DNA of 62,833 nt, the filler included, from Hausera hauseri (Eukaryota), in the NCBI GenBank assembly GCA_046269625.1. It is 10 parts of 10 records of this genome, joined end to end, with 100 filler letters (N's around TTAATTAATTAA, not from the genome) between each part and the next. Parts side by side here need not be neighbours in the genome. Positions count along the whole stretch, not along the records: positions 41,027 to 47,377 come from JBJURY010109209.1; 9 more parts are not named here. One strand, 5' to 3'. Positions 2,855-61,079 of this stretch are shown here, piece by piece. The stretch's first letter is position 1. Each line of letters starts with the position of its first letter. The position numbers and the translations under genes were made by a program. The notes under the pieces are model-generated. The model saw nothing but the letters and a program-made list of their open reading frames with translations. It had not been told where the DNA came from and ran no database searches.

Positions 2855-3562
2855 ATGGAATTGAGAACTAACGATATGAATGAGTATTCTATCTGCTTAA
2901 ATAACTTGAACAACACGAGGCAAAGATTCAGCATAATACGCAGTTAGTCAGCTTTTTGATATTAAATTTACATAATCAGGTTTGCTCGATAAAGTTCAGC
3001 GCATGAATACGAATAGTAATATAAACGATACTATTGAATCTATTAGAGATATAATAAATGACGAGGATAAGATTATGGGTAAAAATGTTGAAATTATAAA
3101 TGGTAATGATATATTGAGTGAGAATTCCTATAATCTTTGCAGATTTTTTTGTAAAGGATTCTACTTGGTATTACAGAGTTGGCCAATCAGTACCGAAAAT
3201 AGTTGAGTTTAAGTTTTTTTTGATTTTTTTCATTTCCCAATAGACTTTATTCGGAACGGATGTTAAATCAAAGGAGCAAATTTTGAAATACACAGGAGTT
3301 AATCCTATTGATTTTCGAAGAGAAAAAGATATTCGCCATGTGAAACTTTCAAATGATGGAGACACTCCATCGATTATGTTCAGAGATGATTTTGAGTCAA
3401 ATATCAGTTACTGCTGTAGTAATTGGTGTGATGTTTGCCTTTTTGTGTTCAGTCTGTATTCTCGTCGGTCTCTTGATGATACCCTGAGAGCGAAAAGAGA
3501 TTTTGATAAATACAGAGAAGGTAATGAAAATCCATGCTTAACGTTTCTGTTGGGAGTGTCAG
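2855..3562 (+). CDS. AGAP/centaurin-gamma-like protein, 5' exons (N-terminal helix plus GTPase-like domain); exons 2855-2942, 2980-3078, 3143-3201, 3244-3562
   Basis: GT-AG introns of 37, 64 and 42 nt splice in frame to give ...LLDKVQ...DFFVKDSTWYYRVGQSVPKITLFG...IMFRDD...WCDVCLFVFSL...FLLG. This follows the AGAP1 pattern ([24 protein letters not shown]...LLIRDE...WVDAVIFVFSL). Confidence 0.7.
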
Positions 3563-4739
3563 GTACGAATATGTTTTTTGGAGGAATTTTGAGATATCAT
3601 TTGAATGAAATTGTGACTATTTTAATTTGAAATGGATTGTAAAATGATTCTATTTAGTTAATTAAATTTTCATGAATGGGTAGTAACACAGGCGGGAAAA
3701 TAAAATATTTCCGTTTTGATGCATTTGAAATTTGTCACATTTAAAAATTACGTTTCCTTATTGTGTTTTTATCGGTATCTCTTATTGACAAACTTAATAA
3801 CTAATATGACAAGTACATTTGTCTAAGATTACATTAATTCGGAAAAATTTGAAATTTGAATGTATTTGATTTAAAACTAATCCCACTAACATTGAATACT
3901 TTGATGAATGGGAAACGAAATGTTTCGAAAATAATCAAATTACATAATGCATGACAATTAAAAATGTGACAAAAATAGAATTTTAAATTTCAAAAATTTC
4001 CATTAACTTTTTTTAACAAATAAACATTTATTTACTGTTTTTTTTTTCTAATTTACATGTCTATGGAATTTAGTTCTACAAGTACAGCATTTGATGACGA
4101 TTAATGATTTGACAAAAAATTCCAAGCTGAACGAACAGTACGCAATGAGTGCGTCAAATGTTATATCATATGGCACTTTTTCAATTACCCCCGTAACATG
4201 CCGAGGCATTTTGAAAATTTTGTTTCGTCGTTTTTGTTATGCCAAAGTACAATGCATTTATATAATTTTTAATCGTGATCTTTCAATTTCGAACCAAGTA
4301 TTAGAACATTAAAACACGAGCGAAGGGGGGAAACTGAATAAATGCCTAATTACGTTATATTTGACAGACTTCATTGTGCTGGTAATTGAAGAGAGGCAAA
4401 ATGCCATTCAGTTATGTTTTGCGACGACGTTATAGATGATAAGTTAACATATTAAGTGAACTAAACAACTGCCGGATAATGCCAAAGCACACATTATCGC
4501 CCCATGCCCATAAAACCTGTGAACACCAATCAAATGTATAAAAGAAGAACAAAACAGTATGGTAAACAACTGAAGCATGGAAATTTCAATAAAATCGACA
4601 TTCTATCGAATATTCAGTTGTTGTTACCTTAAACAAACAAATATTGACTGATGTTATTTAATTCTACTGACTATCAATGACTTACAGCCGTGGCCAGAAG
4701 CCTGGGAACAGGACGATAAATTCAGACTATTTGATGAAC

Positions 4740-14466: not shown

Positions 14467-15351
14467 TCACAAAAAATCAAAAATATTTGGTCTATTAATG
14501 GATTGAAGATGATTAAATCTCTCATTTAATGCTACGCTTCTTTGAAGAAGTTTTTCTTTCTCAATTTCATTCAAAAAATTTCTATAATACGTTTTCAAAA
14601 ATGTGTTACTTGAATTTACTTGAATGATACAGTTTCGTATTTTGATTTCTTTTTGAATTTTCAAATCGAGAACTGTTTGAAGGCAATTCATTTCTATCAT
14701 TTGACACGTTCTGTGTTCCTCCTTTATCTTTTCAAATTTTTCCATCCAATTGGAATTTATGGTATAATTTTTACAATGCTCATATTCATTTGTTTGTTTC
14801 AAAATATGTACACCTGTTAAATTGTTTGCTTCGAGATTATTTTCTAAACTATGTGAACTATTTGGATCTGACAGATTAAATTTCTCATTATTCAAGTCAT
14901 GATTGATTTCATTTGTCTGACTTAAAATACTTTCATTTGCTAAATCTCTCGTCTTTAGGTTCTTTTGTGAAATACATGAACTACTAGAATCTGAGAGATT
15001 AAATTCATCATTGTTAAAATCATCATTGAATTCATTTGTCTGACTTAAAATACGTTCATTTGCTAAATCAGTCGGCTTGAGGTTCTTTTGTGAAATATAT
15101 AAACTACTTGAATCTGATAGATTAAATTCTTCATTATTTACGTCATAATTGAATTCATTTTTCTGATTTAAAATATGTTCTTCTGTTGAAGTAATACTAT
15201 TAGAATTGTTAGATGAACTGCTGCTTGAAGATAATTCACTTTTGTTGCTGTCCAATAAATAATCATTTAGTGCATTTTCGTGTTTGTTAAACGAATTCAT
15301 GTAGTTTGATTCTTCTTCTTTGTAACGACATTCTATTATACAATTGATCAT
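14467..15351 (-). CDS. Uncharacterised 294-aa Asn/Ser-rich protein with three 41-aa tandem repeats and a helical C-terminus
   Basis: 885-bp uninterrupted ORF in very AT-rich DNA; repeat unit xQxNEFNxDxNNxxFNLSDxxSxxxSQKNLKxxDLANExIL. Confidence 0.65.
   Translation of the reverse strand: MINCIIECRYKEEESNYMNSFNKHENALNDYLLDSNKSELSSSSSSSNNSNSITSTEEHILNQKNEFNYDVNNEEFNLSDSSSLYISQKNLKPTDLANERILSQTNEFNDDFNNDEFNLSDSSSSCISQKNLKTRDLANESILSQTNEINHDLNNEKFNLSDPNSSHSLENNLEANNLTGVHILKQTNEYEHCKNYTINSNWMEKFEKIKEEHRTCQMIEMNCLQTVLDLKIQKEIKIRNCIIQVNSSNTFLKTYYRNFLNEIEKEKLLQRSVALNERFNHLQSINRPNIFDFL
14805..15175 (-). repeat. 123-bp in-frame tandem repeat (about 3 copies)
   Basis: Recurring ttcatttgtctgacttaaaata and gaatctga-agattaaatt blocks at 123-bp spacing. 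Confidence 0.85.
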
Positions 15352-16458: not shown

Positions 16459-17391
16459 CTCTGTTGAGACTCTAAACAGCGTCAAAATGAAAGGCAACAC
16501 CAGTCTATACAGTATCAAAGTACTCATTAAAACTGCTCTGATTTACAGTGCGAACACAAAAACGACTCATTTGAAGAAAACCATCGGATACGATGCCACA
16601 GCGGCAAACCGTTAGGCATGGGTGGCAGAATCAAAACGGCTTACAATGTTGGATCGCTGTACTTTGACTTTTTCGATCAGCCGAAATACCTACTGCCCGG
16701 TGTTAAAGCCATGATTCGGTTCAAACGCAACGACAATATCTTTTGTTTGAAAACAGCAGTTGCAAATCTCAAATTCATACTGAAAATTACCAAGGCACGA
16801 TTATACGTACGTCGTATCAAGGTAGAACCATCTGTGCTCATGAGACATCGATTGGGCTTGGAAACACAAAATGTCTCTTACCAGTTACAACGCACAGAAC
16901 TCGTGTTTTACACTATATCCAAAGGTTCAACTACGTTTCACAAAGATGCACAGTTTGGCGACCTGCAATTGCCGAAATTTGTGCTTGTTACATTTCAAAC
17001 GACTGCTCAATAAACGGGCAGTTATACCACCGATTCGGAAACGTTTAGTCATAGCCATGTGAATTACATCTGCTTGCTTCGGAATGCGGATTTCTTTGCG
17101 ACCGGTGATTATGTTTGCACATATATGCAATCTATCGTGCGCAACATGGGTTTGCTGAACAAAAATGTTAAGAATAGCACACCGATGGATTTGTTCAAGT
17201 CCACCTATCTATTCTTCACCTTTCTCCTGGCTCCTGATTATGATGTTGAACAGACTCAACTACCTCAGCAGGGAAACCTGAAACTGGAGGTTCACTTTGC
17301 TAAAGCGTTGGAGCAATCTATCTTGATGTACATTTACGGTGTATTTGATGCCGAGGTTGAAATAACGAAAAACGGAATTGTTATTGTATAA
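16459..17391 (+). pseudogene. Polinton/adintovirus major capsid protein (double jelly-roll, PY/hexon), C-terminal part
   Basis: LYFDFFDQPKYLLPGVKAMIRFKRN...ARLYVRRIKVEPSV...QLPKFVLVTF...FFTFLLAPD...GNLKLEVHFAKAL; in-frame stop at 17011. Confidence 0.9.
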
Positions 17392-31732: not shown

Positions 31733-32779
31733 TTTATATACCAAATGTAATACACTTTGTTTTAATGCATCAAATAAATTAAATGCACTTGGGTGCCAAA
31801 TAGGTTTTCATACAATCGACTAAAGTCATCAGATTCTTCAAATAATGCATGTTTGACCGAATATTATCGAATTTTTCAATGTTTTATTCATTTCGAGATA
31901 CTTGTAAATACTTTGCACACCCAATTTTGGTCTACAAATGTTTTCGGACATGGGAAATCCGATGGTAATGTTTGAATATTTCAAATCGATCGAAAAATCG
32001 GATTTTATGTAAGCCTCTTCGCATATCTCTCATCATATTCGGATTCTCCATATATGGGTTTCTATCTCTCTACGCTTTTAGATTTTTCGATTTTTGCTTC
32101 TGTTCGAATAGAAAATCAATTATTGGAAAAGTTCGATTTGTATTTGAGTTTTCGAATATCTGATGTCAAAATCGGATACAGCACATGTTAGTTTTTATGT
32201 GTGTACGCTTTTATATTTTTCGATTTCTACTTGCTTGTGTGCTAAAATCAACTTTATAGGTTTTATCCGAAAATAGTTATTATTGATTAAAGCGCACTTA
32301 CACATGTGCGACACATTTGAAAAGTGCTACATAGATGCACTAAGACATGGGGAATCGACTGTCTCTCTCAGATTTTTCAAAAAGTTTATGGGTGTCAAGA
32401 TAATCGATACTATTCGGTGAAAATCGATAATTATTCCAGTTGTGCACCGAATTTCGGAAATCTGAGATGGAAGACCCGGGATACAATGTGGAACTTCCTA
32501 TCTGTTTTCGTTTAAACATTTGTTGAATTTTGACTACTTAGGACCTAAAAAGACTACGGGAAGTCTGCACCGGTTGCACTTTGGATCGACATTATTCGAA
32601 ATCGACTCGATCGATTTAAATTCTAATTGCACATTCACATAGTGCATTGTATTTCCAATCGATTGCACCCGGTGCCATGTGCTAATCATCAATATTGGCA
32701 ATATCGGAAATCCGATATTATTGATTTTTGCACACTTGCACATATGATGCGCACCTGTGATTACGAACAACCTGAGTCA

Positions 32780-34440
32780 ATGTCTTCAATGGACTATGAT
32801 GAAGTTGAATCACAATCACCATCTGACGAACGTACAGCTGCAGTGCAAAGGAAAGGAAGACTGAGAGGGAGGGAACGTGCAACTGGAACAGGAAAGAAGA
32901 CTGATGCAAGAATTGTGTGGGATGTTGATTCACTAGATGTCACAGATTCAGATGTGAACTTCGATGGTAGCGATAAGTTGACAGACGAGATAATAGCTTT
33001 TCAGAATCCTTATCAGTTCTTTGAATATCTATGGACAGAGAAACTGAACAGCTTGAATTCTGATGAATCCATTCTGTGTGGAACTCAGGAGCATCTGGAC
33101 AGACCATCAGTTTACACATTCAGTGACATTCGTCAGTTCATTTCGATTCTGATGTATGATAGTTCAATAATATCTGTTCTGTGTACACGTGTGCTGTGGA
33201 ACAGAAACATAGTAGGTGACAAGGTTTCCAATATCATGTCCATCAACAAATTTGAGGAACTGAAATCTAATATTCATTTCTAATATAATAATTCAGCACA
33301 TAATATCAACTCACCTGACTATGATAAGCTGTTCAAGATCAGACCACTTCTGAATAATCTGCTTGAACGTACAAGTCTGGTGCCATTTGAAGAGCGCTTG
33401 AGTATTGATGAACAGATAATCCTCTACAAGAGAAAATTTTCAATCAAGACATATATGAGAATGAAGCCACATAAGTGGGACATAAATAACTGGGTTCTGG
33501 CCAGTGCAATTGGTTTTGTGTACAAATTTAGAATTTACACTGGAACATCGCTTCCTGTGGATGAGGCAAGTGGTAAACTGGAATGTGGTGCCAGCGGAAA
33601 TGTCGTTGTAAAGTTGCTAAGAGATGTACCACGGAGTGTAGGTTATACAGTGTACTTTGATAACTACTTCGGCTAAGTGAAACTGCTGATTTGGTTGGCA
33701 AAGGAAGGCTTTCTTTGCGTAGCAACAGTTTGCACCAACCGAGTGAAGGAAACTAATGCGCGAACTGATTCAGAAGTGACACGTTTGGGCACAGGCGGCA
33801 TGCATGAAGACATTGCTGCAGTGAACGATATCCCCATAACACTCATCAGGTGGTATAATAACAAGGCTGTTTATTTCCTGTCCATATACATTGGAGCTAA
33901 GCCAGTGGGGACTATCAAGCGCTGGGTCAAGACTTCCAAGGCATATAAGGACATCTCATGCCCTGCAATCGTGGCTGTATACAATCGCTTCACGGGAGTG
34001 TGGACGCAAATGGTATTTCAGGGTATTCACATTCATGATAAATATGTCAGTCGTGAATACATGGTTTTTCTACCACAATCGAGCCAAAGACTCAAGGACA
34101 CAGCGGAGGAATGACAGATTACGCACTGCTCCATTTCAGATTGGAATTGGACAGTACCCTGTCTCTGTTGAGTGTACACCCAGGAGCACGCAAGCGCGGT
34201 CGCAGATAATTGATAGATGAACAGATCCAGAGTCGTGCACAACTCCCACACGTTCCTCATCCGCCAACAAAGGACGTGCGCCTAGATGGAGTGGAACATT
34301 TGAATGTAGTCAACGCGATCAGATCAAAGTATGGTCAATGCTAAAAGACAGGATGCAAATCACGTACTATGTACATATGCTAAAGTGTAATATGTCGATG
34401 TACAGCCAAGACATGTTTTGTTTATTATCACTGCTAAGCT
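32780..34440 (+). mobile_element. piggyBac transposase pseudogene (PGBD2/3-like)
   Basis: PYQFF...MSINKFEELKSNIHF...DKLFKIRP...SIDEQII...KPHKW...VYFDNYF...WYNNKAV...CPAIVAVYNR; Cys-rich C-terminus; stops and frameshifts. Confidence 0.93.
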
Positions 34441-40926: not shown

Positions 40927-41026
40927 NNNNNNNNNNNNNNNNNNNNNNNNNNNNNNNNNNNNNNNNNNNNTTAATTAATTAANNNNNNNNNNNNNNNNNN
41001 NNNNNNNNNNNNNNNNNNNNNNNNNN
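40927..41026. other. Artificial contig spacer
   Basis: N44-TTAATTAATTAA-N44. Confidence 0.99.
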
Positions 41027-42135
41027 ATGCGAATACCCCTATTATTATTTTAAAAATGTCGATGCTTTCGTCATCGCCAAACGATTACTACAGCGTGTTT
41101 TCTATAATCAACTGATGTTGTTCGAAAAAAAACCAAACTTTGGCAAAACACGAGAAATTGTTTGTTGAGGTTGCTAAAAACGGCATGGTGCGATTGAAAC
41201 CGGAATGCCAATTGCATCGTTACACGAACCATGCTCCATACGGTGATTGCGTTGAGTTAATTCCAAAAGGTTGGACAGATCCATTGAAATTATCGCCTAA
41301 AGACACGGAACGAGATCGAAATGGAATAATGGAATCTGTTATGTATATATGACGATTAATCACAACCAATACATGAAACAGCCGGTTCATATTAGAGTAC
41401 TTAAACTTGGCACAACCGACGAATGGATGAGTTTTGCTGTTGACTGACAGAAAGATACGGACTCTACGAGACAAATTACCACGTCACTGACTGATAAATT
41501 GATGTCGTGGGTACATTTGGGCATTCAGGGAGCGTTGTTGTCTCAGCTAATATCACCGGTGTACCTTTATAGCATACAGTTTGGAAAAGATTACATGCAC
41601 GAACATATATCTCGAGCATTGTTGTGTCGTGTTCTAGTGGATTATTTGATAGACGAAGCTGATACGTATTACCAGAAAGTTAAGTTCCAGGACCCATATA
41701 TTGATCGAGTTACACAAATAACAACCGATAAGTTTCGAATGGACCTAAAACCAGCTGAGTATAACATGTTAAATTGTTGAGTCCAATTACCGAATTCAGT
41801 GTGTGTTACAACTGGTATTTGAATCCGGTTACTGATCTCGCAGAAATGATCGATACGACTACAGGGTGTGTTCATCCTAAGTCTCCATTTATACTTCCAG
41901 ATGGTGAATACGCTAATCAATGTTCAAGATTGTCAAAAGTCTGCATGCTAATTAGATTAAAACAGGCATTCAAAGTTGCCATTGAATATTTTGCATTGCG
42001 GCCAGAACTTAAAAGAAATAGATCTCTACAAGGTATCAGTGAGGCCGCAAAATATCAGTACAATTTTTTCAAAAATGCTGCTGTCGACTATCGAAATCTG
42101 AAGGTAACACTATTCAAAATGTTAGAAACCAAAAT
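41027..42135 (+). pseudogene. ADAR/ADAD-type adenosine deaminase domain fragment, catalytic residues substituted
   Basis: DAFVIAKRLLQRVFYNQL (HAE->DAF), LH.YTNHAPYGD (PCGD->PYGD), SLTDKLMSWVHLGIQGALLSQLISPVYLYSI (SCSDK->SLTDK), SRLSK...Y...K.AA.DY; intronless, frameshifted. Confidence 0.85.
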
Positions 42136-42139
42136 TTGT

Positions 42140-42685
42140 TCGTGCAAATTTCAGCATATACAGTTTGTAATAGATAATGTCATTGATATATTGGACATTC
42201 TCACGGAACCAGTTGCTGGAGATACTACTTATCAGGCTAGAAATGAATCAGTTTCAGGAATTTTTGCGGAGGACTTAAAAAATTTTGAAATATCAATCAG
42301 TTCAGCGAACTCGCTCAGTTACCTGCAGTGTTAGTAAAAATGGGATATTCAAAGGCGAATAAAACATACCACAAAAAGCTTATTACAGTGGATACGATCC
42401 ACTATGGGAAGTAATCCATTTTCCATAGAAGAATGCTTAACTAACGGTAAACGATTATTGTGGTTACTTAACAAAAATCGCGTTAATGAATCTGTTGTAA
42501 GAAATAAAATTAAAAAGCAGAGAATTGCTACAACCGCCAATCTCATTCCAAAGGAAGGGTCGCCTTTGAGATGTGTTAATATTGACAAATGTCGAAAGTC
42601 CACAATAGTCTTAGGTCCCGTTGAAAATACTACTCAGATTGTCAATTGTGAAGATTGTGTAATAATAGTTCAAACTCCTCGACTG
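42140..42685 (+). pseudogene. TBCCD1: TBCCD1 fragment, internally deleted
   Basis: HIQFVIDNVIDILDILTEP...GYSK...WIRSTMGSNPFSIEECLTNGKRLLW...RIA...SPLRCVNIDKCRKSTIVLGPVE. Confidence 0.7.
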
Positions 42686-44300
42686 GTACTTATCATGTTG
42701 ATTGTTCGTGATTACAATCGAATTATACAATTGTTGAGTCCCGAAGAACAAAATCTGTATCAAATTACTTGACAAAAAATTCAACCGGGTCTTACTAAAA
42801 TTCTCTGGTCTTCGAAAGCGACAAGAGACGTCTTTGTTACCAATTGCAGAGTTAATGCTGCCAAACTACAACAAAGTCGACGAATACAAATCTGCAAACG
42901 CAGGTATTCAAAAACAAAGCGAGATGATTTCGTCTACGCTTATGACAAAAATCGACCCAAATCGAGCTTATGAAAATTCAGAATTTAACGACTCTCAAGT
43001 CAGTCACAGAGTTTTCGTTAAGGAGAAATTATTAAAAATGCACGAAGGAATTCGTGAACAAATGAATGAAACACAAAATATTTGCTCAAGATGGTCCAGA
43101 CGTTCACGTATTCTGGACTAATTATCTAAACAAAGTCGATAAATTTTGCGAAGCATTCCGGCCAAACATTAAGTACTCTTTGAATGACTAAACATAGCAA
43201 TTGATAGTGATGGTAGCAATGAACCGAGTCCTTTGTTCAGTTTCTCTAAATTTACAGATGCGAGACTTCGTGTTTATCCAAACTTTACTGGAATTGACTT
43301 TGATCCTTACATCACTCTTCGATAAATTTATTGATCCCTTTCGTATAAGTTCTGCGATTCAAGAACCACTTAGTTATTGGGATGAGTTCAGAGAAATATG
43401 GGAGTTAAATAAAGAAGAATTTATAGTGCGTTACTGCCAACTTATTCCACATGTTTATTCCATCGATGCCGATATTAGTCAGTATACTGCAGTTACTAAC
43501 AAAGCACTGGATGCTGAAGCAATGGTTACTGTCAGATTTTTGCAGCTTGATTTTTCAATGCTTAAAAACAGTGCCGCACATTGTCGTGATTGTAAACAGA
43601 AACTGACAAATCTCTTGCTATCAATGGCAACTGAATAGTTGTATTATTTGCACAATTGCATGAAGGAAATGACTGAAAAAGTAGCAAAAGTCCCCAAAAA
43701 TTCAGAACAGCTCGGTGAATCGAATCGGCTGCTCGATAAACTGATAACTAAAGATAATAACGTTTTTCCAGAAAAATTTGCTCTATTATATGAACATCTT
43801 GTTATTTTGGATAAATATGAAGTTCAGTACAGTGATAAAATTCGACAGATGAAACAGAACTTGGAAAAGGAATGGCAAGATTTCTTTTAAACTCTTGTAT
43901 GCCGAACGAATGATTAAAAAGTCTAAAGATAAATTTAAAACTGGTTTGTTGATTCAATCCGATGACTTCAAAAGACAAGTAGCTGGTTTGGTTATAGATT
44001 TTCAGACAAATGGTTCGCTTACATCCGTTGTTCCGCCACCAGAGGCTCTGAATAAAATTGCTAATTACAAGGTACAAACTCTTGAACAAGAAATACTCAA
44101 GTTTCAATCTATCCAAAATTGAACAGCCGCTGTCGAAAGAAATCACATCACTGGACAAGGACTTGGAAAACATTGAACAAATTTGGAAGTTAGCTGCCGA
44201 ATGGGAAACCATTTGGGATGTTTGGAAAGCTGGGAGATTTGTTGAACTTAATACAGGAGAAATGGAATTTTTCGCTACAAATCTGTTTAAAAAGTTTATA
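42686..44300 (+). pseudogene. DNAH2: Axonemal dynein heavy chain (DNAH2/1-beta) tail fragment, intronless
   Basis: VRDYNRII.LLSPEEQ.L, KKIQPGLTKILW, WDEFREIWELNKEEFIVRY...DADISQYT.V, KKSKDKFKTGLLIQSDDFK, KIEQP.SK...WKAGRF; multiple frameshifts and stops. Confidence 0.88.
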
Positions 44301-44893
44301 TTTAAAAAGTTCGCAGTTCACTGTCATATGTTGGACTTTGAACTTTCTGGACCAGACCACAGTATTGATTCTATGGACATCCTAAGAGTCAACAGCAACC
44401 TCACTGATCGACCGACGGACATTCAACCATCAGAGGCATCTAAACAGGTGCGTGAAATTTCTTTCATTGATTCGCACCCACCAGTGTGACCGCTTTTTGC
44501 GCATTTGCAGACCCTTCATGGCTCAAACCATTTTTCATTTTAAAGGGTTTCTAAACTTAACATCTTTGTATATTTCTTCATCCCAATAATCATTTGCGAC
44601 CGCTATCCCGGCTGTACGCTCGAACTGCTTCTTAATCCAAAAGGTAACCGTCCAAGCCCCCCGTGCATTTCATCGTTACCTTTCCTGGTCTTTAGCCACA
44701 ACCAACACATTACAACCTTGCAAGCCCCACTCAACGAGACAACACAGTTCTTACATAACGCTTTGTTCTTATATAGCATCTATGATTTTTATTTCACATA
44801 TCAAGGGCTTATAGTACATCCTTCAGACTCCCTCTTGTCTTTCGTATGTCACGAATGTCCAGACACCTGTCTCTTGTTCCATTTTCGCTTACG

Positions 44894-45880
44894 TGGTGAA
44901 TCGGACCCCGATCCTTCTTATGTGGAAAACTCCACAAATACCAGATCTGGTCGTCATCCTGCCGACTCCACACCAGCTATATCTCCAAATCATCCTTGCA
45001 CAGATTTTTTCTTGATAAAACCAATTCGAGCCGCACTTGGCTACAGTTCCATTACAATGGCTTAAAGTCAATCATATCAGACTCTTTTGCGGGCAAACAG
45101 TTTGCTGGTATTACTTCCAGCTAACATCAACAATCTTGCTGATATACTCACTTCTTCAACTCCATATTATATGCTTTATGAATTAGTTCTGCATATCACC
45201 GACCCCTCCGTTAACAGCATAATTCAAAAATACTTGAATGAGCATGCCATTGGGAATCAAAAACCATCGGACTTCCTGAAAACTGTAATCTCTCAATTGA
45301 GTTCCTTAGGCGTTACTTCTATAAACAATACCGATCTTCTTCGTCGGTATTTTCTTTCATGTTTGCCTACTTCCATCAGGTTGCTGCTCACTGTAGTAAA
45401 TGATTCAACAGCCCTTGAAAAGCTCGCCTTATTGGCAGACAAAAGCTTCTACATTTTTCAATCTAATAGTCAACAGCCAGTAGCTGTAGCAACCGCTCAC
45501 ACACCTTTACACACCGACAACACCTCATTCTCAAAACAATTGCAATTGATGCAGCTACAGTTTGACAAGTTACAGCAGTCAATTCTAGGCATTAATACCC
45601 AACTAAATAATCTTAATAGGCCTCGACGAAGCGAAACCAAATCTCTAAGGGAGAGAAGCATTTTTAGACACTGCTCGATCCATTTCACCTGGCGGACGCA
45701 TGACTTGTTTTTATCACACGCGATTTTGAAGGGATGCTAGGAAGTGTTTTTTGGATTGTCGGTTCTATAGCGAACGGTGCGCTGTGGACAACTCCATCTG
45801 TGTCTATCACAATAAGTTTCAGTCACAGGCTAGGTCGTGCGTGCCAGGATGTAAACATTATAAAAACAACTCTAGTTTCT
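44894..45880 (+). mobile_element. Ty3/Gypsy gag remnant with candidate PBS
   Basis: TGGTGAATCGGACCCCGA PBS-like site; IGNQKPSDFL...FLSCLPTSIRLLL...LEKLALLADK; two Cys/His knuckles CFYHTRF.RDARKC and CVYHNKFQSQARSC. Confidence 0.85.
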
Positions 45881-46049
45881 CTCCGTCTTCTTTGCCTCGC
45901 ACTCACCATTCCTCTTCTTTCTCCCAACAAGTCTCAAAAAACCAATAATGCCACCAGATGCCACGGAACACTCTGGTATAGACAACATAGTTCAATCTTC
46001 TGGCCGTTTCAACACCACCTCATCAGTTTTCCTGCTGAAAGCTGATCTG

Positions 46050-47377
46050 CTATTTGGAGACATCACATAGACTTTCTTGTCGATTTAGGAACTGCCCTAA
46101 TTCGGTTGAAAATGTCATCTTCAATTTGGAGTCTTCCTCTAATTCGACTTGGTTGTATGTATTCTCTAGGTCGATTGACGTGAAAAACTTTGTCCCCTAT
46201 AACCTTTCCAATATCTCTACCACGTTAGGCATGGGGAAGGCCTGCCGTTCCGTTATAAGATTCAGCTGCCTGAAGTCCAGGCATATTCTGACATCGTTCT
46301 TATCTTTCTTCCATACGCGTAATATTGGTGTATTCCATGCTGAGTTATATGGCTTGATAATGTCGTTTTCCCACAGGTTTCGGATGGTATCCTCGATCTT
46401 GTTTTCTAGGTTTACTGGTAGCCTATGAGACTTGATATTAATCGGCGCTCCTGTCGTGTCTATTCGATGTTTGATGAGAGATATGCACCCTATGTCCCAC
46501 TTTTCGGCCATGAATATTTCTGGGTATTTCTGTATAATGTTGAGTAGCTCTTTGTCGTCGCTCACCTAAAGAACTTCCTTCGCCCTGTTTGCTTGTTCTT
46601 GGTTAGTCACCTTACGGCCGAACTTGGCTTCCAGGTTGCATATATCTTGCTGTAATATCTCCGCTTCCATGCGTTTCCATCCTAGTTCTATTTCGAATGG
46701 CTTTTGCAGGTCCACACAACTTATTATTTCTGGGCGTAATTTTGATACTATTAAAAATATCACCCGTCTTCTTAAACCCTTGATTTCTACGTCTTCTCTC
46801 AGTGTTCCCAGGCAATCTAAAGGGCTATTGTTCGCACATCCTAGTGTGCAAGTTTATCCACGATCTTCTTGCTTCTGACGTTTACCCTGGCTCCCGTATC
46901 TAATAGGCAATCTTCCCATCTATCTTGTATCTTGAATTTGATTCCTGGTCGTTCATTAAACTTCCTGTATGATATCTCTTCGACATACAATTCGTGTAGC
47001 GTAAAGATCTGCGTATCATTTCTACTTTCCACCATTCCGTTGGAGGATACTTCCTGGAAATTTTCCGTTTTCATAAATTTTCGTACATTTTCCTGTGTCC
47101 TTTCATCCATCGCTATGTCTCCCTGTTCCCTTCTTCATCATCCGTCTATATTGTTTGATATACTACTAATATTATACATAACAATATTTTGGGAGCCTAA
47201 ATCTTTTGCTCCACTTTTATCAAGGCTGCGCCTTTTGGGGCAACTGACACCTGATCAGATTTTGTTTCTTCTTCCTCTACGTTTGCGACCCCCCCCCCAT
47301 TTTTTGTTCACATTATCCCCGTACTTTCTTTCGACGTTGTATATATTCCATCCAGGTTCCTTTTCCCCTCCAGCCTG
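46050..47377 (-). mobile_element. Ty3/Gypsy pol remnant (protease plus RT N-terminus)
   Basis: CLLDTGARVNV; IKHRIDT...SAWNTPILRVWKKDKNDVRICLDFRQLNLITERQAFPMPN. Confidence 0.93.
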
Positions 47378-47611: not shown

Positions 47612-48411
47612 GTAAACTTTGTTTCTCTTATCTTGAATTATTTGTATTTTGTGTATCAATTGGTTCATTTGGATTGAAGAATAAATGTTTGAAAGAATTT
47701 GGTGTTGTTGAATTTATATTAAAAATACAGTTCCTTTCCACAGATTTCAAAAGGTAAATGATAAAATTTCCCATCGCTTTGATCAATTATAGCATTTTTG
47801 TATTCGAGAATACATTTCGTTTTTAGTTTATCCATAAAGGATACTTGATTTGGAATATTCAATTCGTGAATCTTATACTGTATTTTTAATATTTATTACT
47901 TATTACTTGTTTATTACTTATTGGATCTTACAATTTGAGAAACATGTATCACAGTGTTATTGAGCGAGTAGATGATAAATATCTACCATTATTCGGGCGC
48001 CTATTGGCGCTGGATAAACGCGATACGAATGTATATATTGAGGCTATTAACATCGCAATGCTGCTGAATAATAATTAGATGTCACACAATGGGTCACACA
48101 TTTGCAGACCTAATCACCTCGAATAATTATATTAGTATGCTGCATTGCCGAATCAAGTACGGTAATATTTCCACTCCAACCCAAACCTTTTCATCTTTTC
48201 TCATTTGCATAACAAATTAGCAAATAGAGGCTCAAAGGGTCCTTCAATCATTTCAGTCGTCTACCTTAGTATTAGACTCGTTCTCAGTAGATAACCATCA
48301 AGATTCAAATGTATTTTTGTCTTTAATCTTACATTTTGTCACAAACATGCTGAATCAAGGCAGATCCAATGCTGGTGTATGACTTGCTAGTGTACAGGAA
48401 AATATAAACAA

Positions 48412-49900
48412 ATGTCAGAAATTGAAGGTAAATGGGATGAATGTTATGGGATATATGAAATTGATTGGACTCCAAAAACATGTGGTCAGTTTTATTTGGT
48501 CATGTCTATTGATCATTTGGTGATGAAAACTGCTTCATCGTCAGCGAATTATACCGTTGCCTTTGAAGTTCTGAAGAATCGAGGAAAATATTCACATGAA
48601 GACAAAACAAAAAGAAAGTTAGATTTACTAAATTCATTTTTAGGTCACACGAACATATTAACATCAAAAGAACCAGATTCGTCCAAGTTGATATCACCAA
48701 ACAATGACGAAATTCAACTGCGAAAACCGAAGCGAATCAAGAACATGTTATTTATGATTCCATATTTCGAACGATACCAAACCGAACAAGAATTCGTGAT
48801 TCCGGATAGGTCGAAAAATTCATCGAATCTGTATATTGAATTGTGGCCTCTTCATAATTTTCTGTACGTGAGACAAAAACGAGTATCAATCAAGAAGTGA
48901 CTGCTTGACTTGCATACCTCTTTTCAAAGCCCAAATATCATCGAAGAATTTTACCGAGTTGAATTTTCCGAGTTCATCGACATTTCCATCGTTTGCCATG
49001 AGACAACATTTCAGACTTTCTAAAACTATCCAACAATGCAGCACGGAGATATTTGACCGGAGTATCGTAAAATCTCAAAAGTGGATGAACGAAGCTAAAA
49101 AATTGGGACTGTTGGAAATGAGATTTTTTTGAGTGGTCAGTATTTGAACGAACTGAAACTGACTGTTCACATAAGTCTCAGAGTAAAGATAATCGTGAAC
49201 TATTGTTATCAGACTTATTTGTGGCTGCTTGACTCTGAAATACACCAGTAGCCGCATATTTTTGGGTGGTGTCTGTATAGTATACTGTATAACACTCACT
49301 ATTCACCTAGATGCATGAATAAGGAGGACAAACCGATTGAAGGTAATCGATCGGAAATTGGTTTCAAACATTTATGGAGAGTAGGCATTACGATGTTCCA
49401 TAAATTATTCGACCATATAATTCATCAAGAAGAACTCAATGGCATATACGTGTCGAGTATGAAGTCTCTTGAAACTATGGAAGACGTGGAAAATGAAAAC
49501 AGAAGTTAGCATGACTTCCTATTCAATATTGGGTTTTACAAAGGCTTTAAATGCGAAACCTTATCATCAAGACTCAGTGATCTACAACGACGAGTACTTT
49601 TATATATTATCATTCATTTTAACAAGGAAGTTGCAAATATGCTCCTCCAATTGAAAGACAATTCTGCACAAATCCACGAAGACCTCATTCAAGAATCGCT
49701 TTCGGATCCTTCGTTATACAATTCATCATGTTGTTCTTGCTGTTTCCGACTTCTCGATCAGATTTTGGCTCTTTCTGAAGCACAAGCTGGATTAAGGTAT
49801 CTCATTCATGAGTTCAAGTTAATCAAGGATTTGTTTATTCTTTTATTTATTGGATCTGAGAATATTAAATGGAATATTCACAATTTATTAGCAGTTGGTT
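48412..49900 (+). pseudogene. MYCBP2: MYCBP2/Highwire (PHR E3 ligase) fragments, internally deleted
   Basis: Filamin-like GIYEIDWTPKTCGQFYLVMSID, and CFRLLDQILALSEAQAGLRYLIHEFKLIKDLFILL (cf. CFELLSMVLALSGSNVGRQYLAQQLTLLQDLFSLL). Confidence 0.6.
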
Positions 49901-50119
49901 CCACAGAAAGAAAATCAAATAATAAAACATCACAAAATAGCGCCCTATGTGATTCGCAACTGACAGTCGTGCCACTTCAATACCAAAAAGTCAAATACCA
50001 ATAAAAATCTTTTTACTAATCATATTTTATATCGTCAATTTATATGCAGTAATATTAACTACCAATCAACGTTGCGTGTCGATGACTACAATTATGTCAT
50101 TTTTCTCTTTTAAAACTTG

Positions 50120-51953: not shown

Positions 51954-52174
51954 GTTGGTGTGGCCAGCACCCAGAACCCAAAACTTCAGGGTAAACCTTA
52001 CTACATTAAGGACAAAGGTATTCTCAGTATTCTAGATCCATATCTGAGCATCACTCACAGAGACCACCACATGTTTACCCCATCTGAATTAAAATCTTAT
52101 GCAAAGAAAGATATTCCATCCATGGCTGAGTGTGAGAATTATACAAAAGCCTGGGGTCATGGCCTTCACCACAA
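51954..52174 (+). CDS. Internal coding exon of an unidentified metazoan protein
   Basis: CAG acceptor, GTAAGT donor, open frame VGVASTQNP...YYIKDKGIL...DPYLS...YAKKDI...KAWGHG. Confidence 0.6.
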
Positions 52175-52859
52175 GTAAGTGCAGATTGTTGTTTTTCTTA
52201 CATGATTTGTTCCATTGTTATTTAATGGTATTTTTTGTAACCTCAGTCAGTAGCTGTTTGCAGTTGGTTGAAAGATTACAGAAAAAGAAACTGTTAGCAG
52301 ACATGTGATGTGGTTCATGTGTAGCACCGAGTTCAAACATTAAAAGCTAGGCCTATCGTTGTGGCTCAGCGACATAAACCACAATACCAGTGGATACTTT
52401 TGTGAGGCTATCTGAAATCGCTAAAGAAAACAAGTATTCACTGACGCACATTCAACGAATGAACTTACTTGTAGCCCTTCTTGGTCCCGAGGAATCTGAT
52501 GTGCTGGGAGAACTTTGTGCTTGAGAACTAGAACTCAATGCTAAACGCAGGGAGGAGAGCATGCGTTCAAGAAAATGTCATGTATTTAATTTATAACATG
52601 TAAAAATATGATAAACTTACAGCCATCTATTTCATCCAATCTGTTGGCAGCCTCTCTTAAAAGATGGGACACAGAACGGTGCGATGAACATGCCATTGTT
52701 TCTTTCCTCACATCCACACATGAAACATCGAGTTCAGCTCAGTCAGCGCGCATGGATTTACTAATAGCGCGTACTTCTTCTTGTTCTTGTGGATTGACGG
52801 TTGTCAAAAAACTGAAGGTGTGCATTACTGCCACCTACTTATTAAAGCTAAATCAGATT

Positions 52860-52930
52860 TTGCAGCAGCTGTTAGCTGTAACCAATCAGCTCCAATCAGC
52901 TGCAGCTGCTGTGAGGAGGATTTAAAGCAG
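52860..52930 (+). promoter_or_regulatory. Promoter of the teleost gene: two CCAAT boxes, CAGCTG E-boxes, TTTAAA TATA-like box
   Basis: CAGCTG...ACCAATCAGCTCCAATCAGCTGCAGCTG...GATTTAAAG about 85-140 bp upstream of the ATG. Confidence 0.55.
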
Positions 52931-53006
52931 CTCCTGCAGGTTGCAGTCAGTGTCAGCAGCTCTGAGCTTTGTGTTGGTGCAGTCTGTCAGTGTTCCCTGC
53001 AGCAGG

Positions 53007-53689
53007 ATGAGGTGAGCCACTTCCAGTCTCTAACAGTGTTTCTACATGTTCTAACATCAGATGATCCATGTTGACCTTCTGCTCTGAATGTTCCTGCAGG
53101 ATGTTGTGGATTTCTTTCCTGCTGATTGGAAGCGTCATCTGCTTTCCTCAACAACAACAAGGTGAGTGTAAACAGGAAGTGATGTGAGCAGGTTGTAGCT
53201 GATGCTGACTGTAGATGTTTGTCCTCAGCCAGTGGAGGTGGGCAGCCCTGGTGGTGGTCTGTTTCATCTTCTGGACATGATCCCTCCAAGCCGAGTGATG
53301 AGAGAGCTGCAGGCCAGTCTGGTGGTTCTGGCAGCTACAGCAGCTATCCAGGACTGTACTACAGCGGTACCAACACTGGTTCTTATGGGGTCCAACAGAG
53401 TGGCCCTCAGGACAGTCAGCAAGGGGCTCCAGGCAGCAGTGGTCCTTACCAGTCTACAGAGGAGAGCTGGAGCTCCTCCTCAGATACCAGCGGTGAGGAC
53501 GAGCCGGTCTTCACTCCAGTAGAGGACGAGGATCAGGTCTACGCTTTCAAGTCTCGCTCGCGCTACAACCGCAAGCGCCTGTCATTCAGTCAGTTCCGCT
53601 ACACCCCAACAGAACCACGTTTCTCTGGGGATCCAGGATTCCCTGAACCAAGACCTCAACCACAAGATCCAATCAGGGGAAAGTACTGA
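53007..53689 (+). CDS. Teleost-type secreted Ser/Gly/Pro-rich protein; exons 53007-53011, 53100-53161, 53229-53689
   Basis: Canonical splice sites give MRMLWISFLLIGSVICFP (signal peptide)...DEPVFTPV...VYAFKSRSRYNRKR..FSQFRYTP.EP; AATAAA near 53726. Confidence 0.8.
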
Positions 53690-54463
53690 GGATCCATCAG
53701 TCTGTTGCTGCTGACTCTGATGCATAATAAAGGACTTCTCTGCTTGTAAATGAGGTTTAATTTTTTTTTTTTCCGTCTAGGTGTGACTGCTACTCAAGTA
53801 TTTATATTGTTTATACTTTGTGCTGCAAACTTCTCTCAAGGAGGACTGCAGTCTCATTGTTTGCAGATTGTCATTACTCGTCTCTAAGGTGTTATGTTTG
53901 ACTTGGTGTTTTCCCTCAAACTGTAATTGGAAAATTCTCCATGGCACATGCTGAACAAAATTTAGTGCTGTTCAAGTGAGCGTAATGTCACTCATGGCTA
54001 AGGCCTTTTAAGCCACTTATTTAAGATTGGACTATTTATGGCCAACCCTCTGCATCCACATACAAATGGCGTGGGTAAGGGAATGGCACCTTTTCTGTGA
54101 AAGGCCCTACACCCATCACCTCCAGTCTGGGCTCTGCTTAAAACATGTGGAAGCTTTAAAGATTAATATGCAAACATATTTTCAGTATTTGGTTTATCGC
54201 AGGAGATGTGGCTAAAACTCATGGAAATTAAACAATCTTGAACCTCACTCTAGGTGGCAGTAATTAGTTTGCCAAATGCCATTAAAGGGATCCCTGATTA
54301 GTTGTAACAGACTTTATTTGATAAACATTTAACTGTAAAATAGACTGTAAAAATATTGTAGGTTTTTTAGTTTTGTAAATTTTTAAAAATATTAACACGG
54401 ACAGAGCAATTTTATTTACATGCAAAGCATTCTGGGTAAATGATGACGTGGGTAGGTCATCGG

Positions 54464-55289: not shown

Positions 55290-58200
55290 GTATATACCCG
55301 CTCATGTGCGTAACCGGTTGAAATCAGAGGTGGCCAAATTCCGACAATACCACTGCAAAGTGCAATATTACGCATTTGCAGAATTTGAAAATCTGCAGGG
55401 TGACAGGAAACAATGGTACCTGTAACATCCAGTCTTACCATACTCTGCGGATTTTATTGCCGACGTAGGCGAAAAGCTTGATGAAAAAATCTCCAACTAC
55501 GCCGAAAAGGGCAATGGTTGGAAAATTGTAAAGATTGTCACGCGCAGCTTTATTCTAACCAAGATGAGTGACATGATTTACCTGTCCGGACGTTCATTCA
55601 AACCGACACCTGCATCCTTGAAGCAGTATCTGGCGGTAGAGATTGTACGAAATACAAACGACGAATACGGCTTTATTTACAGCATTCTGGCCATATTGAA
55701 ATATGATCAAGTGTCCAGATATCATGCAAATTGTCCAAAGCAGTACAGTAAGTATTTCTCAGAATTGGACTACGACCAGTGTTTGATGCCCATGAAACTC
55801 AAAACCATTCCGGCTTTTGAACGGCATAATCTGACACTGGCAATCAACATGTTCCGGTACAACACAATCGTAGAAATACCAGCAGACGAAGAGATATACA
55901 AAACCCACACGTGGATAAAATTTATCGCAATCGGAACCCGAATGGACGCTCGGTAAATTTGTTGCTGTAGGAGCAAGCAGATAAATTTTACTACGTGGCA
56001 GTAACCAATTTGGACAGACTGCTGAACATGGATCACCACCAATTCATCAAAAGGCGTATGAATTGTAAATAGTGCACCACATGTCTGCATGGTTTCAGGT
56101 CAGAAACGACATGGGAAAAACATGTGGCGCTGTGCAGACAAAATTCATCAGGGACAACAATGTACGTCATGCCAGTTAAAAAGGAGCTGAGATTCAGTGA
56201 CTGATCGAAAACAGACAGTCCGACGTATGCGGTATATGCCGGTATCGAGGCAATTCTACCGCGGCACAACGTATACGAACAAAAGCACATTCCAACTGCC
56301 GTCGGTATGTTGTTTGTTCCAATAAAAGCCGCCGGACAACGGCAATATTACGTTTTTCATGGCTGGAACTGTATACGCGATTTCCTGCAACAGTTGGAAA
56401 CGATAGTGTAAACGGAAATCGCATAGTGGTACAGTAACGATAGCACTAAGCCCTTGATATGGACAGACGAGTATGAAACGCTGTTTTTCGATGCCACCGA
56501 TAAATGTTACTTCTGCCACAAATTTTGCCTTTGATGCACAGGAACGGCACGTACCGGACCATGATCATTTCACCGGTCTATACCTGGGAGCAGCATGCAA
56601 CGCATGCAATTTAACAAGGCATGTGCGGCAATTTCTACCGGTGATCTTTCATAATTTCCGAGGTTATGATTGTCACCATATACTGAAATGGGCCATCAAC
56701 AGATTTCCGTACTGAGAACTGTCCATAATCCCATCAACAATGGAGAAGTACCTGTCCCCGTCAGCACGCATAAACTGGTTCCAGGTATGCTACCTTGATT
56801 CATTGCAATTTCTCAATGAATCACTAGCGAAGCTGGTAAATGCCGTACCGGATGTGCCGATAACCTCAACGCAGTTCCCCACATATTGCAAGCAGCAAAG
56901 GCATATTTCCATATGACTTTGTAACATCATATGAGCGACTCCGCACAGCAGAGAAATTACCGCCGCGATGGACAGGCATCACAGAACTTGAATATCAGAG
57001 AGTACAAGAAACTTGGACAGAACTCGGCTATAGAAACATGTTGGATTACATGCTCCAGTATCTTAAACTGGGCGTGTGCTTATTGACCAATGTGTTCCAG
57101 GCGTTTCGAGCAAAAGCGTTGGTGGAAGATAGGCTGGAGACACTCAACTTTTACTCAATACCCGGAATGAGTTGGGCATCAGCTCTGATGTCGCTGGATC
57201 GGGATATCGAGCTATTGCAAGACGATGAAATGTACCGAAAGTTTGATGTTGGTATTAGTGGCGGCATGACATATGTCAACAAACATCACGTAACCAGTGA
57301 TGATACCACATCACTGTTGTATATCGACATTAATAACCTGTACGGCTGGGCGCTTTCATAACCCTTGCCGCACGGTTCATTCGAATGGGTAGTCGACAAA
57401 CAGGACCTGGACACAATATTGGAAAATGTGTCAAGAGCAGACACGACAACAGCAGAAAACAGCTCAATCGGATACCTGATGGAGGTCGATCTCGTGGTAC
57501 CAGATGAGCTGCATGACTTTTTGGATGAACTGCCAGTCGGACCAATTAGCCAATGTCCACCGGGCTCGAAGGTGAAGAAGCTGCTTATGATGCATGAACC
57601 CAATCAAAATTACATAGTTCATTGGCGTCTGTTACAATTTCACATGCCGTTGGGTGTACGCGTCACACAGCTGCATCGTACAATCCGATTTGCTCAGGCG
57701 GCCGTATTCAAGGCGTACATAGATGGAAATTCGGAAAAACGAGCCGCAGTTTCTACAAAGTTCGAAAAGGACTATTACAAACTGAAAAACAATTCTCTGT
57801 ACAGAAAAACAGTGGAGAATCTGAAAAAGCGGCTCAATGTACGCCTATGCAATGGCGAAAAGCGGTAGGTCACGTACTCGAATAAGGCGCAGTTTCGGCG
57901 GTCAATGCACATTGTCGATGGATTGGTTGCGGTGCTTTTAAATAGAGAAGTCGTTCTGGACCGGCCAAGTTACATCGGACAAGTGGTATTGGACCTGAGC
58001 AAGTTGCGGGTGTATGAGCTGCAGTATCGCGATTTGGCACTTTACCGGCAAATGTTCGGTGGCGGCAGCAGGATCACTATAATTGCCGGTGACACAGATA
58101 GTTTTTTCTTGTAACTGGAAATCGTCATTCGCGAACAACCTTTGCAGAAAATAATGGCAGACGGATTACTGAACACGTCCAATTACCCAGAGAATTATCC

Positions 58201-58812: not shown

Positions 58813-59824
58813 CCTGTCAGCTGCTGTGTCCAGTGACATGACCTATGCCACACTTATATATTTAATCACTTCCTGCTGGACTGAGTTAAAATGGACCTCT
58901 ACATTTCTCATGTGTATTTTCCTGTCATCAGTAAATAATAGAAATACATTTTGACTGTCTGCAGGTGGAGATCTCTAACACGGCTTCATCCTTGTTGTCC
59001 TCCTCCTCTTCATCCTCGTCATCCTCAGGAGATAAGAAGGGCAAAGGTCGAACAGGCTGGCCGCAGCATGTCTGGGCTCTGGAACTCAAACAGTAGCCCC
59101 CCCCCCCTCACCCCCATTATGTCCATGACAAATTCTGTTCCCTTCTTACACCACAACACTTCTTTCCTAATTTCCAAAAATGTCGCATTAATGATATCAT
59201 TTCTAGTGTGTTATTGTGACAAAACAACATATGATGAAGGAACAGGTAGAGGAATTGGCTGGTATTGCTTTATTATAAACAATTCTTACATCCACAGATA
59301 TAGCTGATTCACACTGATTTATTTCATAGATATTTGTTATCTGACTTGCTGCAAGAGGATGAAAAAAACTCCTACTCTTGAAGTTCAGCATGAACACATA
59401 TGTAATGATATTTTTGTCAATGTATGTGTTAGAAGTAGTCCAGGCTGACAGACGTTCCTTTAGAAGAATAATACAAAATCATACGCTGATAACACATTTA
59501 AGTTTCAAGTAGGAATTATTGTCACTGCACTCCTGGCAGACCCATAGGTTCTCAGATCTCCTCCTCAGAATTTCCCTCAGTGTCCATCAACTGAAAATTT
59601 CAGTTCGGTTTTGGTTCGAGATCCTTCTGGTGTTTTCTATGTATTCCTCAGCCTTTGAGGTTCCATGCTTGACGCCGTCGATACTGATTTTAATACCTTA
59701 TTTAATATTATTACTATTTAAAACCCTGTGGTCGTTAACTCACATGCAATTTTTTATTCATACAAAACATACTATTTTCCGTAAAGTTGCCTTTCAGAAT
59801 TATTTATAAGCATAAGACACTTAC

Positions 59825-61070
59825 CTAGAAATGACAGCTGAGAGCAGGTGCAAACAATTCCATTCCCTTCAAGTTTCAGCATAAAATACCCAACGTTTGC
59901 CACGTGATTATCTATAGCTGTCATCTCCTCATCTGTGAGACTTAAGACTGCATTCTGAGTAAGATCCAGAACCTCTAATTTCGGAGTGGATTGGATGTCA
60001 AAAGGAATTTCTGAAAATCTATTTCTTGAGAGCACCAAAAACTGTAAATTTGGAGTTGATTCGAAAGTGTCCGTAACTAGTGAGTTTAGTTCATTATTTG
60101 AAATGTTGAAATGTCGAAGATTTGTCATGTTACTTAATAACCGTTTACAAGAAATTTGCTTAAAGAAATCGTCTGGTTTAACGGCACTGAGGATGAGCTT
60201 CTCCAATCGTGGGAAATAATCCCAAAACGTGTCGCCAACTTTCACTAAAGAATTGGTCAAATCCACACTTCGTAAGTTGCACAAGCCTATCAATGGTTTT
60301 GGACCAGAAAAAAGCATTGGCATATTACGTGCGGAAAATTCTTCTAGTATCTCACCATTTGTAACAAGAATAGTTCTACTCATGCTGAGGAAATTGTGAT
60401 AGTTGAAATTGTCTAATTTTATGGATATTAATTTCGGTGGAAGACGAATTGATATCACTTCTTCTTTCTGAGAAATTGCGTAGCTGCACTTATTTACTGC
60501 TTTCTCAGTTGATAAATCAGAAAGAGAAATCATAAAATTATTTCTATTCTCGAAATCACTGGTATTTCTATAATTTTGTGGTTTATAGATTTGTTTAGTA
60601 ATGTCTACATCTGCGATATTATTGTTGTCTTTTGCTTCCTCTTCATTCAATCCTTTAACTGGTAAGTTGTCACTAGTTACTTTCACTGGAAAATCAGAGA
60701 CACGAAGCGTCTTGTCCGTAGTAGGCTGTTCTGGAGGACCAAAAGGCCGCAAAGCTACAATTCTCTCTAAATGAGGAAAACGTACTGCCGAGTAAGTAAA
60801 GCTCTCCCATCCTAAAATATCTAAGGGATTCGATGAAAAATCTACCGTTCTCAGACACCGCTTAATAGTCGGTGTTACAATAGCTATAGGATGAATCGCA
60901 TATAATTTGCTATGACGCCATGAAAAGTTGACAATGCAGATTTTACCTAAATATTCAGTTGCATTTCTATATATAATCCCGTCAACAAATATCTCGACTG
61001 GAGACCTGTAGTGGAAAGCATAATTGACAAATAAGGTGATCCAACTGGATTTTGTGCAATAATTACACAA
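59825..61070 (-). CDS. Leucine-rich-repeat receptor ectodomain exon (invertebrate Toll-like receptor type)
   Basis: Tandem LxxLxLxxN repeats and LRR-CT start (GNGIVCTCSQLSFL), then GTAAGT donor at 59824. Confidence 0.75.
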
Positions 61071-61079
61071 TATTCATTC

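Follow-up and report, generated by a model that had tools for sequence, protein, structure and literature searches.

Multi-gene chimeras formed by template switching of LTR retroelements are already known from fly, mouse and maize. The animal cases comprise two-gene chimeras in Drosophila and the four-gene retrocopy "Super" of the mouse (Tan et al., 2016, PMC5131818). That paper describes LTR-mediated retrocopies as typically truncated and without poly(A), and reports a fixed switch-back site for the element BLASTOPIA (PMC5131818). In maize, three captured gene segments lie within the LTR element Bs1 (PMC13317346; PMC5131818). Another relevant group is the CsRn1 clade, which has been described from flukes and tapeworms and is defined by a CX2HX9CX3C gag motif together with a tRNA-Trp primer site (PMC2582038). 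CsRn1-like elements are reported to be abundant in tapeworms (PMC12471100). At the level of titles and the opening lines of abstracts, we found no flatworm case of an LTR-mediated gene chimera in the literature.

We analysed a stretch of 62,833 nt (the window) from the Hausera hauseri assembly GCA_046269625.1, consisting of 10 contigs separated by N spacers. The contig at 41027–47377 opens, at its first base, with a chimera of three host-gene pieces, a deaminase piece, a TBCC-domain piece and a DNAH2 piece, which meet at joints 1 and 2. Joint 3 connects the DNAH2 piece to a repeat and a gag-like region downstream. The arrangement resembles the animal retrocopies of Tan et al. (2016) in its partial pieces of several genes without intron-sized insertions, the absence of poly(A) and the adjacent LTR element, as well as in signs of secondary multiplication and in the combination of one element site with several gene sites. 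It differs from them in that the cargo described in that paper lies between both LTRs, where it replaces the internal ORFs and shows measured microsimilarity, whereas here it lies upstream of the primer site and gag. The present chimera is also old and decayed, its 5′ end is unseen, the element is of the CsRn1 clade and the genome is probably that of a flatworm. With Bs1 it shares the accretion of segments from three host genes in one retroelement-linked unit, but Bs1 is a new chimeric gene and the unit here is full of stops and frameshifts. Copies that share their switch points, given as a Bs1 feature in these sources, are represented here by joint 3 only. CsRn1 and PwRn1 have in common with the locus the CX2HX9CX3C gag motif, which occurs twice here, and a putative tRNA-Trp-type primer site; unlike CsRn1-clade elements as described in the accessible part of PMC2582038, the locus has six extra letters in the primer site, no pol and host-gene cargo upstream.

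Three partial host genes on one strand

An earlier interpretation of this DNA, made from the sequence alone (the sequence-only reading), had proposed that pieces of three unrelated host genes lie head to tail on one strand. Pfam, tblastn and matches to sequences of solved structures bear this out, as the three pieces follow one another collinearly on the plus strand (Table 1), the TBCC piece being traced from 42152 to 42685 and joint 2 falling within 42686–42692. The ADAD, TBCCD1 and DNAH2 families are associated with the germline or the cilium. As the contig edge cuts inside the deaminase piece, the 5′ end of the chimera is not visible. All three pieces are partial, each being cut in the middle of its coding sequence, with neither intergenic nor UTR sequence separating them. 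This argues against parents that were intron-poor neighbours in the same order and a chimera that is their collapsed, decayed genomic duplicate. That explanation would suit the intact deaminase relative P0002, which is one uninterrupted protein, but of all the readings considered here it is the one to which we give least credence.

Table 1. Features of the chimera and its surroundings, in window positions.
Feature	Position	Strand	Basis
Assembly spacer	40927..41026	none	N44 + 12-nt linker + N44
ADAR-family deaminase fragment (ADAD-like)	41027..42133	+	Pfam A_deamin; alignment to protein P0002
Joint 1	42134..42151	+	18 nt matching neither protein
TBCC-domain (TBCCD1-like) fragment	42152..42692	+	Pfam TBCC; tblastn with P0001
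DNAH2 fragment, human residues ~675–1271	42693..44297	+	Seven collinear blocks; solved-structure sequence matches
Shortened DNAH2 stretch, −147 nt vs human	43183..43347	+	Block spacing; diverged copy spans it
Joint 3	44286..44311	+	11-bp direct repeat, 4 letters between; DNAH2 similarity ends here
High-copy C-rich repeat, putative LTR	44312..44893	+	Contig depth, joints, GC-skew flip
tRNA-Trp primer-binding-site-like motif, 6 extra letters	44894..44911	+	CsRn1 consensus, PMC2582038
Decayed CsRn1-clade gag (DUF7041-like)	44940..45910, start approximate	+	Atlas match, P0003 trace, motifs
Gypsy-type fragment (protease-like piece, RT N-terminus), very high-copy	46055..47130	−	Depth, Pfam

In the deaminase piece, hits to Pfam A_deamin fall in three successive frames (E 6.7e-5, 3.5e-16 and 0.0067). 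The piece aligns with residues 35–423 of the 445 residues of P0002, and identity reaches 61% in the final block, whose end is at 42133. It is without the last 22 residues of P0002, is 40 residues shorter than that protein near 41275, and contains three frameshifts and a stop at 41445. In an alignment to ADAR2 the zinc ligands and the catalytic glutamate are missing from both the piece and its intact relative: the ADAR2 motifs HAE, PCG and SCSDK are aligned with DAL, PKG and SPTDK in P0002 and with DAF, PYG and SLTDK in the chimera. Since both sequences are without the catalytic residues, the parent was already a dead deaminase, and we call the piece ADAD-like, after the catalytically dead relatives of ADAR. 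A comparison of P0002 with metagenome contigs gave nothing useful, and the accessible part of PMC11484910 holds nothing on ADAD expression. An HMMER search with the ORF 41765–42331 returned one match, to a repetitive bacterial-type protein, which was dismissed as chance.

The second piece matches the Pfam TBCC domain (E 4.9e-8), inside which it ends, and contains two adjacent stops at 42332–42337. The one relative found for it is a protein of the tapeworm Rodentolepis nana, P0001, which in tblastn is matched from residue 100 to about 325, from 42152 to past 42685 (E 3e-20). The N-terminal motifs are presumably those of TBCCD1, and we named the piece after them. The final six letters of joint 1 resemble the sequence that precedes the TBCCD1-like piece in another copy, and the 21 nt preceding 42155 finish with what looks like a 3′ splice site. 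Within the TBCC piece, summed contig depth peaks at 108 over 42196–42269, from either many collapsed copies or a chance repeat match.

For the third piece, DNAH2 is the best solved-structure sequence for seven of the eight DNAH2-region pieces, two of these seven being weak alone (E 0.08 and 0.03), and the eighth had no match among solved-structure sequences. About 670 residues upstream and 3150 residues downstream of the piece are absent. The DNAH2 similarity had been thought to start at "VLI", but the contigs carrying other copies place the start at ~42693. The piece changes frame about eight times and has in-frame stops at 43636 and 43888. Because frameshifts and stops run through all three pieces, the chimera is a dead pseudogene, without protein function now. 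Both joints are indeed in frame, as the sequence-only reading had it, but this is a 1-in-9 chance event and the chimera as a whole is untranslatable; the ORFs 41765–42334 and 42338–42772 share a frame, with the two adjacent stops of the TBCC piece between them. A poly(A) tail is absent, and the sole A/T run of at least 8 nt in the contig is at 41125.

The claim that the chimera is intronless holds in the sense that protein alignments reveal no intron-sized excess in any piece, i.e., in 1.6 kb of DNAH2, 1.1 kb of deaminase and 0.54 kb of TBCC sequence. Between the seven DNAH2 blocks the excess over human DNAH2 is −11, −2, −147, 0, −2 and −17 nt. As the inter-block stretches thus never exceed what human DNAH2 needs, no intron is visible in this piece. 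Two contigs have 11 extra letters at 42756–42764, which is exactly the DNAH2 shortfall predicted from the protein. The 147-nt shortening is present in the same form in a 345-nt contig spanning the stretch with 29 differences and 11 gap letters (among 8 listed of 12,200 pieces). Three GT-AG intron candidates inside the shortened stretch were not favoured, as the stretch seems to read like DNAH2; the search with the eighth piece did not confirm this. None of the loose contig ends listed (6 of 17) opens like a parental intron. Among the differences listed between the chimera and other DNAH2 copies, 14 were scored, of which 8 change a residue and 6 are silent; four indel-adjacent rows were left out.

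A monogenean genome with a mean exon length of 289 nt has been described, along with two short-intron modes for such worms (PMC4040987). By that figure, 3.2 kb should contain about 11 introns, a crude yardstick since it comes from another species. Nearer at hand, the sequence-only reading had pointed to an intact gene with short introns at 2855. Introns of 37 and 76 nt could be reconstructed in it, giving 220 aa spliced vs 30 unspliced, but the gene lies on a separate contig, which we take to be from the same organism as the chimera. These two lengths agree with the short-intron modes just mentioned; along with the tapeworm relative of the TBCC piece and the fluke and tapeworm clade of the adjacent element, they make a parasitic flatworm the likely source. 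The absence of intron-sized insertions suggests that the three pieces derive from spliced mRNA.

Bridging contigs and further copies

All read evidence comes from a single run (0.70 of sampled words matched), which may be the source of the assembly. From this run 30 contigs were placed on 41900–43000, with 6 of 17 loose ends and 8 of 32 pieces listed; contig depth was not taken as copy number. Joint 1 is bridged by a 436-nt contig (42067–42502, depth 4.6) and joint 2 by a 161-nt contig (42642–42802, depth 8.9), both with 0 differences and more than 31 letters on each side. Depths at the two joints are similar to those of the flanks. The joints thus passed the check for read support that had been proposed for them, and the zero-difference bridging contigs exclude that the assembler mis-joined the pieces. 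A fusion created artificially, in assembly or in whole-genome amplification, would nevertheless be in keeping with the fragmented assembly, with the change of character at ~1300 in the contig at 1–12080, which suggests chimeric contigs, and with the fact that the single run carrying the stretch may be the assembly source. We regard it as highly improbable in view of the identical contigs at neighbour-like depth, the occurrence of joint 3 also in a 9%-diverged copy, and the presence of the frameshifts in the contigs of the run too, so that the locus is not one of intact genes mis-joined. A chimera arising early in amplification is unlikely.

Further copies, which the sequence-only reading had suggested looking for, are present in the run as decayed TBCCD1-like and DNAH2 copies. 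Among the loose ends listed, in-frame DNAH2 coding sequence continues upstream of 42693 in three contigs and TBCC-like coding sequence continues upstream of 42152 in two. Whether joints coincide with exon edges could be judged at joint 2: in the other copies this position is no DNAH2 exon edge, because their coding sequence runs on upstream in frame. Two more contigs join a variant of 42152–42166 directly to 42207, which is weak alone (10/100 shuffles match), and one 563-nt contig leaves DNAH2 at ~42885 and resumes at ~43725 (0/100 shuffles match). Deletions in other copies measure 40, 71, 112 and ~840 nt. Joints 1 and 2 were seen in this copy only, among the contigs listed; they may be private to it and could be plain deletions.

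Joint 3 is marked by a direct repeat of 11 bp, compared with at most 8 bp in 72 control windows of the cargo. Six contigs cover 44317, and a 276-nt contig with 25 differences, i.e., a 9%-diverged copy, spans the joint. The table of joints over the DNAH2-to-repeat region, in which 15 of 33 joints are listed, contains five rows out of 12 that connect DNAH2, at 43847, 44075, 44076, 44160 and 44249, to the repeat at 44338–44392. The two DNAH2-to-repeat joints for which the side is stated have only 27–30 letters on the short side, at a degree of likeness where repeats may mislead; we argue that such joints are real because they cluster within the final 450 nt of the cargo. Both joint 3 and the 147-nt shortfall are common to diverged contigs. 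With joint 3 found in a 9%-diverged copy, DNAH2 and the downstream repeat were multiplied as a unit, and the copies decayed separately, with their own deletions.

Such deletions are central to an alternative in which independent processed pseudogenes of the three genes piled up in a repeat-rich region and were merged by ordinary deletions. The CsRn1 element would have inserted independently of them, and segmental or tandem duplication would have multiplied the block. Deletions are common here, and sequence on the far side of joints 1 and 2 is retained in other copies; the cargo lies outside the primer-site–gag unit, upstream of it, as an ordinary flank would; and a second, unrelated Gypsy piece is found within 2 kb. 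The pile-up needs, however, three retrocopies adjoining on the same strand that are separated by no more than 18 and 7 nt and lack both poly(A) and spacer, and several deletions ending near one repeat position (44338–44346) are unexpected from random loss. We consider this origin unlikely.

The downstream element and the origin of the chimera

It had been stated that a gag follows the chimera immediately. Instead, the two are separated by about 570–600 nt of repeat, followed by a motif resembling a primer site. From ~44330, where we place the 5′ edge of the putative LTR, GC skew is strongly negative and summed depth rises from ~75 to several hundred. A TATA-like site lies at 44770, and the LTR would end at 44893; inspection by eye revealed no polypurine tract before it. 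The possibility that 44300–44950 is an integrase tail or a fourth host gene found no support: no Pfam family in six frames and no Rfam family matched. The primer-site motif has one match in the window, and 5 of 100 window shuffles have one; its position just before gag fits. No tRNA gene was found in the window for comparison with it.

The gag has an atlas score of 0.93, with 161 shared features vs a guide of 170. Exact CX2HX9CX3C (CHCC) motifs at 45706 and 45799 make up two of the three matches in six frames of the window. The only gag match, P0003, was used solely for tracing the gag, and searches against viral and metagenome contigs gave nothing useful. P0003 itself joins a bacterial DUF5777 domain to a close gag relative (62% identity) and probably comes from a mis-assembled metagenome contig. 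Neither a pol after gag nor a second LTR was found on the contig. The adjacent repeat and gag appear, from their sequence features, to represent a CsRn1-type LTR element, and the opposite-strand Gypsy-type fragment is probably a separate insertion.

All three host-gene pieces are sense to the gag, which has a chance of 1 in 8. We lean, with modest confidence, towards reverse transcriptase (RT) template switching among co-packaged mRNAs, followed by spread as a non-autonomous element, because the cargo is truncated, tail-less, sense and multi-gene, its neighbour is a CsRn1-type LTR element, and joint 3 is shared. The RT of a CsRn1-clade Gypsy element, of which the gag-bearing element is the putative carrier of the cargo, would have switched template between co-packaged spliced host mRNAs and so produced the three-gene chimera; the DNAH2-plus-repeat end was then multiplied, probably in the form of a non-autonomous element. 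Stepwise addition may account for the ADAD-like and TBCCD1-like pieces, or later deletions in a longer cargo may have moved them against DNAH2. In its fixed repeat side and variable DNAH2 side the locus is reminiscent of BLASTOPIA, for which a fixed switch-back site has been reported. Possible marks of switch points, as seen without comparison to parent DNA, are the 18-nt unmatched stretch at joint 1 and the 11-bp direct repeat at joint 3.

One point against template switching is the position of the cargo, upstream of the primer site and gag and not between LTRs. As the cargo precedes both, it can lie inside an element only if the putative LTR is shared by a cargo unit and the gag unit. The repeat at 44330–44893 could be such an LTR, shared in a tandem arrangement where it closes the cargo unit on the 3′ side and opens the gag unit on the 5′ side. 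LTR-element sequence is seen on the 3′ side only, and since the contig starts inside the deaminase piece, a 5′ LTR and a target-site duplication are out of view.

The sequence-only reading had explained the fusion as a gene-fragment capture, through either a Helitron- or Pack-type element or RT template switching. This is supported in part: RNA-borne capture is the best reading, and its template-switching branch fits better than the Helitron/Pack branch, given that no Helitron-like 3′ hairpin was found, that the neighbouring repeat is of the CsRn1 LTR type and that joint 3 recurs in other copies. In general form, that branch has a DNA transposon (Helitron, Pack-TIR or Maverick) capturing genomic pieces, with the composite transcript then spliced and retroposed. 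Helitrons end at the 3′ side in CTRR preceded by a GC-rich hairpin, although decay could erase the hairpin. Eight CTRR-T sites lie in 44290–46000, none with a strong hairpin (the best, at −5.1 kcal/mol, is in gag), and the only inverted repeats of the contig are short and imperfect. Splicing of such a composite would also place the joints at exon edges, whereas other copies cross joint 2 in the DNAH2 coding frame. The end resembling a 3′ splice site before 42155 would suit a leftover intron end, and both Helitrons and Pack elements can collect fragments from more than one gene (PMC13317346), but altogether we find a DNA-transposon origin quite unlikely.

If template switching was the mechanism, the known range of LTR-mediated exon shuffling would come to include parasitic flatworms and the CsRn1 clade. 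With several DNAH2 end points nested against a single repeat position, the locus could serve to probe whether switch-back sites are fixed, as reported for BLASTOPIA, and a cargo captured by RNA would record the mRNAs that were present in the same cell as the active element. In this genome, such copies can also lead gene annotation astray for dyneins and for TBCCD1-like and ADAD-like genes. A far more extensive scenario, which we think very unlikely, is that a non-autonomous family of the CsRn1 clade, in a parasitic flatworm that lacks piwi, took up mRNAs of sperm and cilium genes one after another at one fixed switch site by the LTR, exchanged cargo among co-packaged copies and reached tens of loci, and that its transcripts now feed small RNAs acting on the parent germline genes.

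Other features of the window

Several further observations were made on the other contigs. The start of the contig at 1–12080 (1–1300) is rich in GA and microsatellites, with a GC content above that of the remainder, and may be fish-like host DNA joined to parasite DNA; 52000–54463 is similar in character. The gene at 2855–3630, whose two introns are of the GT-AG type, is presumably RhoBTB-like, and its last exon had no Pfam match. At 47890–50004, about 2 kb are mostly in one frame, interrupted by stops and without obvious introns, possibly another decayed retrocopy; a Pfam search of five pieces of this region gave no match.

The contig at 36340–40926 encodes a dUTPase (Pfam E 7.9e-18) and, as we read it, integrase-like and packaging-ATPase-like pieces; it is probably a decayed Polinton/Maverick. 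We assume that 16531–17391 is capsid-like and 55426–57868 PolB-like, with no supporting family in Pfam, and both may relate to that contig. A decayed piggyBac-type transposase (DDE_Tnp_1_7, E 1.2e-18) lies at 32627–34220. On the minus strand, 59772–61073 holds a single-exon leucine-rich-repeat ORF of 433 aa, and a 123-bp tandem repeat of 2.7 copies (14854–15180) lies within a minus-strand ORF of 310 aa.
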